DNA of 64,000 nt from Chthoniobacterales bacterium (GTDB lineage Bacteria > Verrucomicrobiota > Verrucomicrobiia > Chthoniobacterales > Chthoniobacteraceae), in assembly GCA_038207335.1 (NCBI GenBank), contig JBBQZX010000002.1:256001-320000 (forward strand). Direction: 5' to 3'. The position numbers and the translations under genes were made by a program. Below, piece after piece: positions 43,833 to 49,223 of this stretch. The notes beneath the pieces are model-generated. The model ran no database searches, was not told where the DNA came from, and worked only from the letters and a program-made list of their open reading frames with translations. Each line of letters begins with the position of its first letter. The stretch's first letter is position 1.

Positions 43833-46790
43833 ATGATCAATTGGCTCATCAAGAAAGTTATCGGCTCGAAAAACACCCGCATGGTGAAGTCCCTCGGACC
43901 CGTCGTGGAGCGGATCAATGCGCTGGAAATCGAGTATCAGCAACTCAGCGACGATGCGCTGCGGTCGAAGACCTTCGAGTGGAAAGATGCGCTCGCGACG
44001 CTCGACGAAGCAGCGCAGGACCGGCGGCTCGAAGAGATTCTGCCCGAGGCATTTGCCGTTGTGAAAAACACCGCGCGCCGGCTTACCGAGCGCAAGCACA
44101 ATTTCATGGTCTGTGATCAGCCGGCCGTTTGGAACATGATCCACTTCGACGTGCAGCTCATCGGCGGTATGTGCCTGCATCGCGGCATGATCGCGGAAAT
44201 GGCCACTGGTGAAGGAAAGACGCTCGTCGCCACTTTGCCTCTCTACTTGAATGCGCTCGCCGGGCGTGGCGCGCATCTCGTCACGACCAATGACTACCTT
44301 GCCCGCCGCGACGCGGAATGGATGAGCCAGATTTACGGGTTCCTCGGCCTCACCACCGGCATCCTTCAGCACGACCAGACGCCCGACATTCGCCGCCACG
44401 AGTACGCGTGCGACATCACGTACGGGATGAATTCGGAGTTCGGCTTCGACTACCTGCGCGACAACGGCATGGCGACTTCGAAGGAGCAGCAGGTGCAGCG
44501 CGGTTACCATTTCGCGATCGTCGATGAGGTCGATTCCATCCTCATCGATGAAGCGCGCACGCCGCTCATCATCAGCGGCCCGGCGACCGTCTCGACGCAT
44601 CAATACGACAAATTTCGCCCCCTCGTGGATGAGCTCGTGCGCAAGCAGACGATGCTTTGCAACCGGCTCGTGAGTGAGGCGGAGGAGTTGTGGGCCGCTG
44701 GGAAAACCGAGGAGTTCGGCAAGACGATGTCGAAGGTGAAATTTGGCCAGCCGCGCAACAAAGGCTTCCTGCGCGCCCAAGAGGATCCCGAGCGCCGCCG
44801 CGTGATCGACAAGGCGGAGCTGAGCTTTTACACCGACACTCGCAAGGAGGAGCTCTACGCGCTGAAGGAAGAGCTGTTCTTCACGATCGACGAGCGCGCG
44901 CACGAGTCCGACCTCAGCGAGAAGGGCCGCGCATTCATGAATCCCGACGACCCGGACGCCTTCGTGCTGCCGGATCTGCTGCTGCAATTCGCCGAGATCG
45001 ACAACACTCCCGGCCTCACCGACGAGCAGAAACTCGAGGAGAAACTCAAGCGCCAGACCTACATGGACCACCAGTCCGAGCGCATCCACAATATCTCCCA
45101 ACTCCTGCGCGCCTACTGCCTCTTCGACAAGGACGTTCAGTACGTCGTCGAGGATGGGAAAGTCGTGATCGTCGATGAATTCACGGGACGCAAGATGACC
45201 GGGCGCCGCTGGAGCGACGGACTGCATCAGGCCGTCGAGGCAAAGGAAGGCGTCGTGATCGACCGCGAGACACAGACCCTCGCCACCATCACCATCCAAA
45301 ACTACTTCCGCCTCTACTATAAGCTCGCAGGCATGACGGGCACCGCCGAGACCGAGGCCAACGAGTTCCACGACATCTACAAGCTCGACGTCGCGGTCAT
45401 CCCGACGAACCGCCCGATCATCCGCAAGGACTTCAACGACTTCATCTACAAGACGCGCCGCGAGAAATTCAACGCAGTCGTGAAAGAGATCGGCGCGGCG
45501 CACGCGAAAGGCCAGCCAGTCCTCGTCGGCACCGTCAGCGTCGAGGCGAGCGAGGTCCTTTCTCGAATGCTCAAGCGCGAGAAAATCCCCCACGCGGTGC
45601 TCAACGCCAAGTACCACATGCAGGAGGCCGAGATCGTCGCGCGCGCCGGCCAGCCCGGCACCATCACCATCTCCACGAACATGGCCGGCCGCGGCACCGA
45701 CATCAAACTCGGCCCCGGCGTCATCGAGGTCGGCGGCCTCTACGTCCTCGGCACCGAGCGCCACGAGTCGCGCCGCATCGATCGCCAGCTTCGCGGACGC
45801 TGCGCCCGGCAGGGCGATCCCGGAGTCTCACGCTTTTACGTCAGCTTCGAGGACGACCTCATGCGCAATTTCGGCGCAGCCGATCGCATGACCAAAATGA
45901 TGGAGCGTTTCGGACTCGAAGAAGGCCAGGAGCTCGAGCACCCGTGGCTGAACAAATCCGTCGAGACCGCGCAAAAGCGCGTCGAGCAGCGCAACTACAT
46001 GACCCGCAAGCGCACGCTCGACTTCGACGATGTCATGAACATGCAGCGCGAAGTCGTCTATGGCTTCCGCAACGAAGCCATCAACCGGGACGACCCGCGA
46101 CCGCTCATCTACGAGACCCTCGACGAAGCCATTCCAGAGAAAGTCATCGGCTACCTGCCCCCCGATCAGGAGAAAAACCCCGACGGCCTCCTCCACTGGG
46201 TGAACACCACATTCCCCCTCGGCCTCACCATGGAGCTCGCGAAATTCGACCAGCTCAAGGCCGACGAAGCCTCCAACTTTCTCATCGAGAAAGTCAAAAC
46301 CAGCTACGAGCTCAAGTGCCGCCACGAAGACCCCGAAGCCGTCCGCGGCCTCGAGCGCTACATCATCCTCAACGCCATCGACCGCCTCTGGCAGGAGCAC
46401 CTTTACGCCATGGATTCCCTCCGCGAGGCCGTCTATCTGCGCGCCTACGGGCAGAAAGACCCCCTCGTCGAATACAAGACCGAAGCCTACGAGATGTTCA
46501 CCGAGCTCATGTCGAACATCAAGGGTGAAGTCCTCAACAACCTCTTCCGCTCCACCTCGAATCTCATGGCATTCGAGACCTTCCTCTCCAGCCTTCCGCA
46601 GCACCTCCTCGGCGCTGAAGCTTCCGGCGAAGACCCCTCCGCCAGCCACAACCCATCCGAAGCCGACGCCGACAACGAGCCCAGCATCTCATTCCCGATC
46701 CAGCGCGAAGCCCCCAAAGTCGGGCGCAACGACCCCTGCCCCTGCGGCAGCGGGCGAAAATACAAAAACTGCTGCGGCAAAGCCGGCTAA
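43833..46790 (+). CDS. secA: Preprotein translocase ATPase SecA
   Basis: [39 protein letters not shown]-terminal SEC-C motif [13 protein letters not shown]. Confidence 0.99.
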
Positions 46791-46894
46791 AGCCACCGTC
46801 GCCAGCGGCAATGAGCAGGGGCGGCGAGACGAACATCTCCCCCGCGCCCGCCCAAGCATGGCTCCCGCCAAGGGACGCCAGCGAACGGCACGCC

Positions 46895-47083
46895 GATCCC
46901 CGAGATCCGCACGGGGACCTTCGAGATCTGCACGGGGATTTCTAAAATCGGCACGAGGATCGTCTAAATCTGCGCGGGGATTTTTAAAATCGGCACGGGG
47001 ATCGTCGCAATCCGCACGCCGATCTTTAAAATCGGCACGAAGATTTTGTTAATCTTCGTGCCGATTACAAGAATCCTTGTGTA
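46895..47083 (+). repeat. Array of nine degenerate 21-bp tandem repeats (GAT-N7-ATC core)
   Basis: Units start at 46895, 46916, 46937, 46958, 46979, 47000, 47021, 47042 and 47063; example unit GATTTTTAAAATCGGCACGGG. Confidence 0.92.
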
Positions 47084-47166
47084 ATGTTCCACACCTTTTC
47101 CACCCTCAAACATAGGCAACATGCCCTTTATGTTCCACAAACCCCACCCAAGCACTCCCCCTCCCC

Positions 47167-47190
47167 CTTCAACGCCGCACCCGTCGCCCG
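47167..47190 (+). repeat. 24-bp dispersed motif, copy 1
   Basis: CTTCAACGCCGCACCCGTCGCCCG; 23/24 identical to 57479-57502 on the minus strand. Confidence 0.9.
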
Positions 47191-47339
47191 CCCCGCCATT
47201 GAGAACAATGCGCACGCTTTCCCGCTCGCTTCGGGCAGTCCAATCGGAAGGCAGATGGGGGGAGATTTTGAAGCGAGTTTGGACGACGGCGCTGACGGAC
47301 TCGGTGGTGACGCATCACTGGGAGCCGTCGTGGCGGGGC

Positions 47340-47369
47340 TTGACGGGGGGTTTTCGCGTCCCCTAGCAT
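47340..47369 (+). promoter_or_regulatory. Putative sigma70 promoter of accBC
   Basis: TTGACG-N18-TAGCAT. Confidence 0.6.
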
Positions 47370-47402
47370 CCGCGACTCATCCAACCAAAACACCCCACGC
47401 AC

Positions 47403-47855
47403 TTGGACTTAAAAGATATCAAGGAGCTCATAGCTCTGATGAAAAAGAACGATCTCTCGGTCTTCAAAATGGAGAACGAGGGATTCAAAATTACGCTGAA
47501 GAAGGGGTGTGATTTTCAACCGCAAATCGTCGCCGCCGCTCCGCAACAATTCGCCCCGCCCGCCGCGCCCGCGGCAACTCCCGCCGGAGCGCCCGCCGCG
47601 GCGGCCGAGGCTGAGAAGCTGCGCGAGATCAGTTCGCCGATGGTCGGCACATTTTACGGTGCACCGTCGCCGGAGTCAGCGAGCTACGTGAGCCCGGGGC
47701 AGGAGGTGACGGAGGACACGGTGGTATGCATCATTGAGGCGATGAAGGTGATGAATGAGATCAAGGCCGAGTGCCGCGGAATCATCGCGGAGGTCGTCGC
47801 GGAGAGCGGAAAACCGGTGCAGTTCGGGCAAGCGCTGTTCCGGCTGAAGGCGTAA
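47403..47855 (+). CDS. accB: Biotin carboxyl carrier protein
   Basis: [20 protein letters not shown] start. Confidence 0.96.
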
Positions 47856-49223
47856 ATGTTCTCCAAAGTCCTGATCGCCAATCGCGGCGAAATCGCCCTG
47901 CGCGTGATCCGCGCGTGCAAGGAACTGGGGATCAAAACGCTGGCGGTTTATTCCGAGGCGGACGTGGATTCGCTGCATGTGCAGCTCGCGGATGAGGCGA
48001 TTTGCATCGGGCCGGCGCTGAGTTCGCAGAGCTATTTGAAGATCGACCGGATCATCAGCGCGGCGGAAATCGGCAATGTGGATGCGATCCATCCGGGCTA
48101 CGGATTCCTCTCCGAGAACGCCCACTTCGCGGATGTGTGCGCAAGCTGCAATATCAAATTCATCGGGCCGCCCGCCGACGCGATCCGCAAGATGGGCGAC
48201 AAAAATATCGCGCGCGCGACCGCGCGAAAAGCCGGAGTGCCCGTGACGCCCGGCAGCGACGGACTCGTCGAGACGGAGCAGGAGGCGCTGAAGGTCGCGA
48301 AGAAAATCGGATACCCGGTGATGATCAAAGCGGTCGCCGGCGGAGGAGGAAAAGGGATGCGCGCCGCGCACAACGACGTGTCGCTTGTGCAGGGTTTTCA
48401 CGGTGCGCGGATGGAGGCGGAGAAGGCATTCGGCAACGCGGGCGTCTATATCGAGAAGCTGATCGAGAACCCGCATCATGTGGAATTTCAAGTCATGGCC
48501 GACTCGCATGGCGATGTCGTCCACATCGGTGAGCGCGACTGCTCGATGCAGCGGCGCAATCAGAAGATAATCGAGGAAACACCGTCGCCACTGATGACCG
48601 AGGGCCTGCGGAAGAAGATGGGCGCGGCCTCGGTGAAGCTGGCGTCGTCGGTGGATTACATCGGTGCCGGAACGATGGAGTATCTCGTGGATGACCGCGG
48701 GAATTTCTACTTCATGGAGATGAACACGCGCATCCAGGTCGAGCACACGATCACCGAGGAGGCATACGGCATCGATCTCGTGAAAGAGCAACTCAAGGTC
48801 GCAGCAGGCGAATCGCTCTCAAATTTCGTCCGCAACGCGAAGCTCAAATACCACGCGATTGAGTGCCGTGTGAACGCCGAGGACCCGTTCAACAACTTCC
48901 AGCCGAGCCCCGGCAAGATCGACCTCTACTACGCGCCGGGCGGCCGCGGCATTCGCATCGACTCGCACGCCTACTCCGGCTACACGGTGCCGCCGCACTA
49001 CGACTCGATGATCGCGAAAATCATCGCCACCGGCACGACGCGAAACAATGCGATCGACCGGATGCGCCGCGCCCTCGGCGAATATCTCGTGCGCGGGATC
49101 AAGACCACGATCCCTTTTCAAGAGACGATCATGCGCGACCCGGATTTCATCCGCGGAAAGTACGACACGAGCTTTGTCGGAAAGCTCATCGAGTCCGGCG
49201 TCGCAAAGCTGCGCCACGGCTAA
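47856..49223 (+). CDS. accC: Biotin carboxylase
   Basis: [36 protein letters not shown]. Confidence 0.98.

Follow-up and report, generated by a model that had tools for sequence, protein, structure and literature searches.

The window, a 64,000-nucleotide stretch of a Chthoniobacterales genome, carries secA and accBC on the same strand with an abrupt reversal of silent-site composition between them. The 3' 1.3 to 1.9 kb of secA (43833..46790, + strand; Pfam SecA domains) form a C-rich tract, with a four-fold skew, computed on our own gene calls, that moves from −0.10 over 43833 to 44900 to −0.73 over 45501 to 46790 (26 G, 167 C). Downstream, accB and accC (47403..49223, + strand) form a weak G-rich tract, at +0.27 over 47403 to 48200 (71 G, 41 C), that has faded by 48.5 kb and stands at −0.08 over 48501 to 49223. 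The flip is asymmetric, strong on the left and weak on the right, and it ranks 82nd among the upward switches of the genome. A sequence-only reading of this DNA had reported 27 C and 13 G at 46681 to 46740 and 24 G and 13 C at 47941 to 48000, counts that are exact, and had claimed a C-to-G switch whose bias fades with distance. The switch is real at third positions, and the gradients are significant in both secA (p = 1e-9) and accBC (p = 0.015). Since contigs from run X1 (possibly the source) tile 45752 to 59500 with zero differences, the first flip is not an assembly join.

The spacer holds a degenerate tandem array (46863..47072) with a 21/42-nt period, whose units form hairpins and whose + frame is interrupted by a stop codon. 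Related arrays lie on contigs C31 and C22. Elsewhere in the genome, on contigs C50 and C1, such an array sits upstream of an ~210-amino-acid gene encoding a helical-plus-FN3 protein, an arrangement that we call the module; the first-site array has no adjacent helical-FN3 gene and is likely a relic of a module. Three one-mismatch DnaA-box-like 9-mers (47085..47139, + strand), which the earlier reading had offered as weak evidence, do exist, but they are one of 30 such clusters genome-wide and show no excess over background. A 24-nt oriented motif follows (47166..47189, + strand), with the C-rich tract upstream on the motif strand, and the change point occupies the trough at 47221..47254 (centre 47,232), ~45 bp beyond the motif. 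The earlier reading had placed the flip near 47.2 kb at this motif. As a universal cause the 24-mer was rejected: we found it at only 9 of 131 strong tract ends, and the centre of the second window site lies ~850 bp away from its copy. A sigma-70-like promoter match (47340..47369, + strand) precedes accB and is similar in relatives without the element.

The second site in the window is the third strongest in the genome. Its change point (56636..56725, centre 56,648) is bordered on the left by sdhCAB (53198..56568, − strand), which is transcribed away from the site and is C-rich on the + strand (to −0.9). A GyrI-like gene (56730..57281, − strand), which separates sdhC from the element, is already G-rich on the + strand, as is the class V aminotransferase gene (57891..59045, − strand; +0.92 to +0.94). 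The second copy of the 24-nt motif (57480..57503, − strand) has two mismatches and is inverted relative to the first, and the accompanying 21/42-nt array (57570..57718) is unrelated in sequence to the first-site array; no module gene adjoins this array either. Raw GC skew runs from −0.34 to +0.39 around the second site and is −0.20 at the first. Elsewhere in the window, guaB (39630..41192, + strand) carries a one-sided C-rich tract (to −1.0) common to the related genomes G005 and G004, and an Rfam search of the window returned no match.

Both window sites are junctions missing in the relatives that we examined, where the orthologous genes show little or no skew. The skew of secA is weaker or absent in G005, G006, G003, and G012, and the first 150 codons of accC stand at +0.22 here versus −0.25 in G005. 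For sdhA the values are +0.69 to +0.82 here versus −0.06 to −0.38 in G005, and for the aminotransferase gene they are −0.90 to −0.97 versus −0.02 to −0.40. The aminotransferase gene directly precedes accB in G005, G008, G004, and G012. The skewed state at the window sites is derived and lineage specific.

The same footprint recurs throughout the 5.2-Mb genome. At D of at least 0.9 we counted 92 upward (C-to-G) switches and 13 downward ones, and at D of at least 1.1 there were 44 upward and none downward; shuffling of sites produced no such switch. Polarity is constant, in that the 3' end of the C-rich strand always faces the site. Skew falls to half strength near 2 kb from the site and has vanished by 5 kb, with an identical decay profile for gaps of 8 to 14, 14 to 25, and >25 kb (33, 32, and 19 tracts). 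Its amplitude at silent sites reaches 0.95, and 394 of 4,910 1-kb windows have a four-fold skew of at least 0.6. These data support the earlier suggestion of a recurrent, site-anchored, strand-asymmetric process that reaches a few kilobases.

Arrays are the best marker of these sites and yet are missing from most of them. D exceeded 0.5 at 22 of 35 arrays with a 21/42-nt period; the same held for 6 of 45 arrays with different periods and for 6.4% of randomly chosen sites. The lag spectrum of spacers peaks at 21 and 42 (28 and 32 of 1,599 spacers), with units that differ in sequence. When gene-order breaks were scored against the closest relative, D reached at least 0.7 at 17 of 107 broken junctions versus 1 of 134 conserved ones (p = 5e-6), while the other 90 broken junctions had no strong flip; none of the scored features was present at 88 of the 131 strong tract ends. 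The core of the 24-mer has 16 copies in the genome within one mismatch; among 60 genomes of the family, 3 hold a total of 4 matches, and an exact 23-nt pattern has 2 matches in a collection of species genomes, one of them within a gene. Homologs of the module gene have an upstream array at 66 of 109 loci. The fold of their protein combines a helical hairpin with FN3; only FN3 domains were among the matches listed, and there was no nuclease fold. Of 8 module loci examined in other genomes of the family, 7 show flips, and L072 shares both element and flip. Across 80 metagenome loci, however, mean flank skew is small (−0.11 upstream, +0.08 downstream), so modules do not act as skew centres in every setting. 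Hairpin strength is a poor predictor that barely distinguishes switch from neutral spacers, a REP-like word occurs in 13 of 131 strong versus 58 of 1,777 neutral spacers, and tRNA genes (8 of 131 versus 28 of 1,777) make a minor contribution. No homing nuclease was found at the sites. We found no Chi-like word, the top words being homopolymers or words of the element; the best 8-mer step had a z of about −4 among 65,536, and no 5- to 10-nt word marked switches or tract-internal steps.

The 3'-ended strand is enriched in C at the expense of G, T, and A, and at two-fold sites it favors A over G; four-fold G+C rises from 0.84 to 0.90 in tracts, and T falls. Transitions alone cannot produce this signature, a ~7-fold C-to-G shift being required, and the fitted folds at four-fold sites are ~7 for C-to-G, 3.3 for A-to-G, and 0.2 to 1.2 for C-to-T. 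In tracts common to G005, turnover (kappa) was 0.125 (0.01 to 0.24) versus a background of 0.247; by our calculation, ~0.004 would be expected under a 7-fold increase in mutation and ~0.15 under fixation bias. From about five genes, turnover does not seem clearly accelerated and leans toward fixation bias, but kappa is 0.44 in the A/G two-fold class, and a mutation model would fit equally well if that value means simply that these genes are slow. Protein identity is not lowered in tracts (0.82 to 0.84 versus 0.81), and C-rich coding tracts encode more Pro (6.0% versus 5.2%) and less Val (5.8% versus 7.0%). At 97% likeness, no variants in runs X1 and X2 were listed and no useful joints were obtained; at 85%, the signal was swamped by other organisms.

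We favor, at a probability of roughly 40%, a scenario in which recurrent recombinational repair, with mismatches corrected in a strand-specific way, has left ~100 site-anchored footprints, that between secA and accBC among them. Mismatch repair is hierarchical, correcting G:G and G:T and handling C:C poorly. Homologous-recombination repair would recur at variable insertion or rearrangement spots, where breaks or strand invasions may be repeated and the 3'-ended strand of each side may pair with a homolog that differs slightly. G:G and G:T would then be corrected by MutSL while C:C and, less so, C:A and A:C escaped, and the 3'-ended strand would drift to C across the length of the heteroduplex tract. 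The repair chemistry at the flips is an inference. The genome encodes MutS, MutL, ComEC, and RecBCD (recC, recB, and recD on contig C5), and no match to AddAB was found. Loss of AddAB or gain of RecBCD was rejected as the driver; neither tracks the pattern, and G012 has RecC with weak skew. A reverse transcriptase was likewise rejected, the only one lying within an island on contig C3 and having no match in G005. The fixed reach counts toward recombination, being close to the ~2.4-kb halving of the exponentially decaying co-transferred flanks described for pneumococcal transformation in the text of PMC3375284. The same text counts against our reading where it reports that imported SNP types show no mismatch-repair effect genome-wide. 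The text of PMC3437207 contains nothing on C:C mismatches. Since an identical sister chromosome gives no mismatches, the scenario presupposes that the genome often exchanges DNA with sources that are not identical to it. Recombinational repair explains neither the same-sign skew that G004 shows across 110 kb in genes of both strands nor the weak skew of G012, which has arrays as well as RecC.

Local mutagenesis ranks close behind, a possibility that we hold at somewhat lower odds. On this view, nicks or breaks at a site would cause the strand leading away from it to be synthesized anew many times or left single-stranded, and that strand would pick up C-to-T, A-to-G, and C-to-G changes through polymerase errors or damage to its bases. 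All three shifts have the right sign (the fitted folds, and T over C at two-fold sites), no foreign homolog is needed, DinB and an imuA-imuB-dnaE2 cluster are present, and many tracts are one-sided and oriented relative to the 24-mer, as nick-started synthesis predicts. Simple deamination, however, would cut four-fold G+C and raise T, the opposite of what we observe; kappa in shared tracts exceeds the prediction provided that the background rate applies to those genes, as a comparison with identity-matched genes suggests; and the undiminished protein identity also speaks against it. A G:C-to-C:G mutation signature for ImuC is not confirmed by the text of PMC7198004. An artefact is very improbable, be it mis-assembly, the distinct codon use of foreign genes, or a codon gradient common to genes in general. 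Genes are on average more C-rich toward their 3' ends (−0.16 versus −0.05), and shuffling gene order retains an up/down asymmetry (120 versus 66), but the X1 contigs match exactly over both window sites, and the tracts sit in single-copy core genes with 67 to 96% identity to G005. The general gradient, which the earlier reading had named as the refuting alternative, is rejected: only 9.6% of 1,921 long genes have a steep gradient, and tracts continue from one gene into the next and involve both strands.

Many local bidirectional replication starts, as extra origins or abortive forks each with a small leading/lagging skew, are an improbable source. The switch at oriC and the profiles of multi-origin archaea and eukaryotes also run from C-rich to G-rich, with multi-origin skew dropping linearly until the next origin so that its decay scales with spacing, and the 21-nt period is reminiscent of iterons. 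The sign here is identical and independent of gene strand, the signature resembles replication skew (origin comparisons drew on the text of SkewDB, PMC8941118), and the 110-kb skew of G004 ignores gene strand. Perfect DnaA boxes have a ~5-fold higher density at strong sites (10 in 58.5 kb versus 9 in 273 kb; 1 of 300 permuted patterns reached 10 copies and 10 of 300 reached the ratio), but this mild enrichment involves mostly single boxes in both orientations, and one-mismatch boxes are at 1.2 per kb in strong versus 1.06 per kb in neutral sites. Whereas a DnaA-dependent oriC gives a single switch per replicon, between long replichores, we count 92 strong switches, ~100 footprints of fixed 2- to 4-kb reach that are lineage-specific junctions and are not conserved between close relatives. 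The decay is unchanged across the three spacing classes, the single dnaA lacks a neighbouring switch both here and in G004, and RNase HI and RecG are present; the replication-start analogy drawn earlier is accordingly weak. Nor do we think it probable that transcription is responsible, through selection for C-rich, Rho-terminating RNA entering foreign DNA or through R-loop damage from outward transcripts. Tract genes do point toward the site in 100 of 131 cases, array junctions shift by a mean of 0.39 where genes run toward the site versus 0.16 away, and fixation bias would fit the turnover result here too. Against this, sdhCAB and accBC point away from their sites yet obey site polarity, ~0.06 of the per-side difference is genome-wide coding-strand bias, short co-directional junctions have no switch, and it seems implausible that such weak selection would bring 2 to 3 kb of translated sequence near saturation.

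No description of this footprint was found in the main texts of the open-access literature that we searched. Co-conversion during the homing of introns and inteins is a known relative of the process that we favor, as is the biased gene conversion of hotspots in eukaryotes. So are Chi/RecBCD hotspots, which also have a polar effect that decays over kilobases, and RecBCD is encoded here; the Chi comparison fails in that no short polar word lies at tract starts or boundaries here. Homing, eukaryotic biased conversion, and transformation entail single events or strand-symmetric GC gain, whereas here core genes show lasting, mirror-image C/G recoding. Transformation involving Hex/MutS, as the text of PMC3375284 describes it, is alike in its exponential flank decay and in survival that depends on mismatch type. 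The closest known system is GRINS, defined in the text of Nivina et al. (2021; PMC8256042) as duplicated regions of >500 bp and >80% identity with correlated GC and TA skews of >0.15. That text describes intense kilobase-scale coding skews, recoded codons, a link to gene conversion, and a mechanism that is unknown, and both window sites exceed its GC-skew threshold. The GRINS test nevertheless failed: none of 131 tracts has a second copy (>500 bp, >80% identity), TA skew is weak (mean −0.08; 23% of the 131 tracts reach −0.15), and our tracts form gradients that mirror each other across a site. Our arrays share a fixed period, variable sequence, and non-coding location with the constant-length 20- to 21-nt bacterial tandem repeats, several families per genome, described in the main text of Subirana and Messeguer (2021; PMC8161180). 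The words "skew" and "fibronectin" are absent from that main text, whereas the arrays here precede helical-plus-FN3 genes and coincide with skew flips.

It is conceivable, if on balance doubtful, that bacteria have strand-specific biased gene conversion in which all long-lived hotspots of insertion or exchange, many seeded by mobile modules, drive C onto the invading strand, recode ~8% of the genome near saturation, shift amino acid use, and map the position and reach of recombination tracts. If conversion is responsible, whether it shapes bacterial base composition could be tested at mapped sites, where both the strand and the length of the tract are predicted. The otherwise unexplained 21-bp arrays gain their first measurable correlate. 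GC skew in bacteria is usually taken to reflect replication, and codon bias to reflect selection; in this group, neither origins nor foreign DNA should be called from skew. Within one lineage, a local process overrides both replication skew and codon selection in essential genes.

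A C-to-G skew switch between secA and accBC, claimed from the sequence alone, is present at four-fold degenerate sites (−0.73 to +0.27). Pfam confirms secA (43833-46790), accB, and accC, and in our own gene calls for the window, which score G and C alike, four-fold skew falls from −0.10 to −0.73 along secA, then starts at +0.27 in accBC and declines to −0.08. The change point, at 47,232, shares its spacer with a 21/42-nt array (46863-47072), three one-mismatch DnaA-like boxes, and the oriented 24-nt motif (47166-47189) on which the flip had been placed. The window belongs to a 5.17-Mb assembly of 53 contigs (G000), and the contigs of sequencing run X1 tile 45752-59500 with zero differences. 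A second flip at 56,648, between sdhCAB (to −0.9) and an aminotransferase gene (+0.94), is stronger still; there the motif is present in inverted orientation, together with an array that differs from the first. A guaB gene in the window has a tract on one side only, and another stretch of DNA that we inspected (L072) has the same element as the window. A further two-sided switch (−0.71 to +0.47) at 19300-19520 is centered on a terminator-like hairpin and flanked by PEP-CTERM-like and S1-repeat genes. Short repeats with a 7-nt period, one third of the 21-nt period, occupy window spacers at 4166-4193 and ~57870-57900; the genome holds 16 period-7 arrays.

Such switches recur throughout the genome, mostly with one polarity. 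Scanning with 150 four-fold G/C sites on each side, we found 92 upward (C-rich to G-rich on the forward strand) and 13 downward switches with a skew change (D) of at least 0.9, and 44 upward and 0 downward at D of at least 1.1. Shuffling of sites left zero switches; shuffling of gene order retained 120 up and 66 down because internal gradients stay with their genes. Close to where tracts end, base composition on the C-rich strand comes to 81% C, 9% G, 5% A, and 4% T, compared with a background of 41, 42, 8, and 8%, and in every case the 3′ end of this strand lies at the site. Around 16 motif anchors, selected irrespective of skew, values weaken from −0.71 at a distance of 1 kb through −0.33 at 2 kb to ~−0.1 at 5 kb. 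A general 5′-G/3′-C gradient shared by all genes was rejected as the cause: at co-directional junctions of <30 bp (485 and 405 cases) D stays close to zero, and a steep 5′-to-3′ drop occurs in 9.6% of 1,921 long genes.

The proposal that switches coincide with arrays or the motif holds for the arrays. D exceeds 0.5 at 22 of 35 evaluable 21/42-nt arrays (37 were found; 2 at contig ends were left out), versus 6.4% of random positions and 6 of 45 arrays with other periods. Arrays are present in 27/131 spacers with a strong tract end versus 13/1,777 neutral spacers, and the lag spectrum over 1,599 spacers has maxima at 21 and 42. The motif, however, marks 9 of 131 strong ends; the recurrent strand-asymmetric process reaching a few kb that the sequence-only reading suggested is supported, but the 24-mer is not its general cause. 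With at most one mismatch, the motif core has 16 copies in G000, and 3 of 60 family genomes yielded 4 matches; a matrix search (score of at least 25) gave 26 matches, some intragenic, versus 0 in reversed sequence. Zero scored features occur at 88 of the 131 strong ends. On contigs C50 and C1, ~210-aa genes are preceded by intact arrays, and structure prediction gives the C50 protein a long helical hairpin plus a fibronectin-like FN3 domain. The window arrays have no such gene and are likely relics. Among homologous loci, the array is upstream in 66 of 109 and downstream in 10. Skew turned from negative to positive around this module in 7 of 8 loci of other family genomes, picked by score and contig size (3 had already been seen with short flanks); the mean effect over 80 metagenome loci is small. 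Helical-looking, unnamed genes without a Pfam match downstream of arrays (C28:78529-79146 and C29:77482-77772) are possibly additional module families. Repeated elements that we take to be attC-like flank small genes at contig ends (C50:1-700, C36:1-650, C16:1-1615, C14:127000-129185, and C1:1-1600), and several adjoin arrays and skew switches.

Comparative data place the window elements in a history of rearrangement. The aminotransferase gene directly precedes accB in G005 (the closest relative), G008, G004, and G012, and in G005 and G008 the accB-to-sdhC block follows it; in G000 this block has the opposite orientation with respect to the aminotransferase gene, and both elements therefore sit at lineage-specific junctions. 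Exchange between the two inverted motif copies could plausibly have produced this arrangement. Skew of sdhA and the aminotransferase gene is weak in G005, where the first part of accC tilts the opposite way. Across sampled G005 stretches (240 orthologs), D of at least 0.7 occurs at 17/107 broken versus 1/134 conserved junctions; most broken junctions have no flip. Within the 60 to about 500 kb sampled per genome, short flips like those of G000 occur in G005 and G101, longer blocks in G004 and G007, and little in G006, G012, G030, and G045. One locus in another genus of the family (L034, G065:C212) has C/A-rich codons and a raw skew that stays between −0.28 and −0.38 along its whole length.

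Along the strand that leads away from the site, G gains over A (85% versus 60%) and T over C (52% versus 32%) at two-fold sites, and G rises by ~2 log units over C in 8/8 codon boxes and 12/12 contexts. With transitions alone, C would stay at 0.37; the observed composition therefore requires a C-to-G shift of ~7-fold. Given the hierarchies of mismatch repair and polymerase error, mismatch escape on the 3′-ended strand and polymerase error or damage on the 5′-ended strand predict the same signs. A test of surviving base identity with G005 (kappa) was meant to split the two. Background kappa is 0.247 for G/C, 0.25 for C/T, and 0.31 for A/G; shared tracts give 0.125 (0.01-0.24), 0.21 (0.05-0.34), and 0.44 (0.28-0.56), and the saturated control G004 is near zero. 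Calculated values are ~0.004, 0.03, and 0.19 under raised mutation and ~0.15, 0.17, and 0.28 under fixation bias. Background genes matched for identity are not slower. Turnover thus leans toward biased repair, in a comparison of about five genes whose lean is lost with the A/G class as internal clock.

We give a probability of roughly 40% to a scenario in which the footprints would arise from repair by recombination, repeated at variable spots, with mismatches escaping correction in a strand-specific manner, and we rank it ahead of the alternatives. Local error-prone re-synthesis or damage would yield the same signature signs from the 5′-ended strand, but the shared-tract kappa of those five or so genes exceeds the raised-mutation values, and we place it close behind. 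Extra replication starts are improbable: the tract profile is identical for gaps of 8-14, 14-25, and >25 kb, and no switch was found at dnaA in G000 or G004, although single perfect DnaA boxes are ~5-fold denser at strong sites, a density that counts against the repair reading. One-mismatch boxes are not enriched at sites. Convergent junctions are in excess and 100 of 131 tract genes point at the site, but sdhCAB and accBC, transcribed away from their sites, follow site polarity; we hold selection linked to transcription to be as improbable as extra replication starts. No Chi-like word was found at sites or tracts.

G000 encodes MutS, MutL, RecBCD, DinB, ImuABC, ComEC, RNase HI, and RecG, and gene content therefore does not decide the mechanism. 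RecBCD/AddAB is patchy inside one genus: RecC is found in G000 (C5:2263-10624, L198), G004, G005, and G012, whereas a RecC match is lacking in G006, which instead has AddAB-like genes (C7, L142); neither these nor the AddAB-like genes of G003 have a match in G000. An imuA-imuB-dnaE2 cluster (C4:172629-177868; L197:4630-9869) begins beside a strong switch at C4:172160, and a lone reverse transcriptase gene (C3:272280-273580, L147) lies in a lower-GC island. In G004, of the same genus, four-fold skew is ~−0.6 across 110 kb with genes on both strands, and a saw-tooth positive skew keeps its sign at dnaA (C13:1-110000 and C2:1-158878; stretches L058, L076-L080, and L116-L123); this pattern is much stronger than usual replication skew. 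The repair model does not account for it.

In the portions of the literature consulted, GRINS (PMC8256042) is the nearest published feature; unlike GRINS as described there, the G000 tracts are never duplicated and their TA skew is weak. Repeats of 20-21 nt appear in the main text of PMC8161180 without function or skew. Excerpts of PMC3375284 report that flanking exchange halves over ~2.4 kb, that marker efficiency depends on the mismatch, and that, genome-wide, repair has no effect on the types of imported SNPs. No published description of the skew footprint was found in open-access text (supplements excluded). The present analysis contributes the link among arrays, gene-order breaks, and skew, the fixed reach of the footprint, and a first test of fixation versus mutation as its source.
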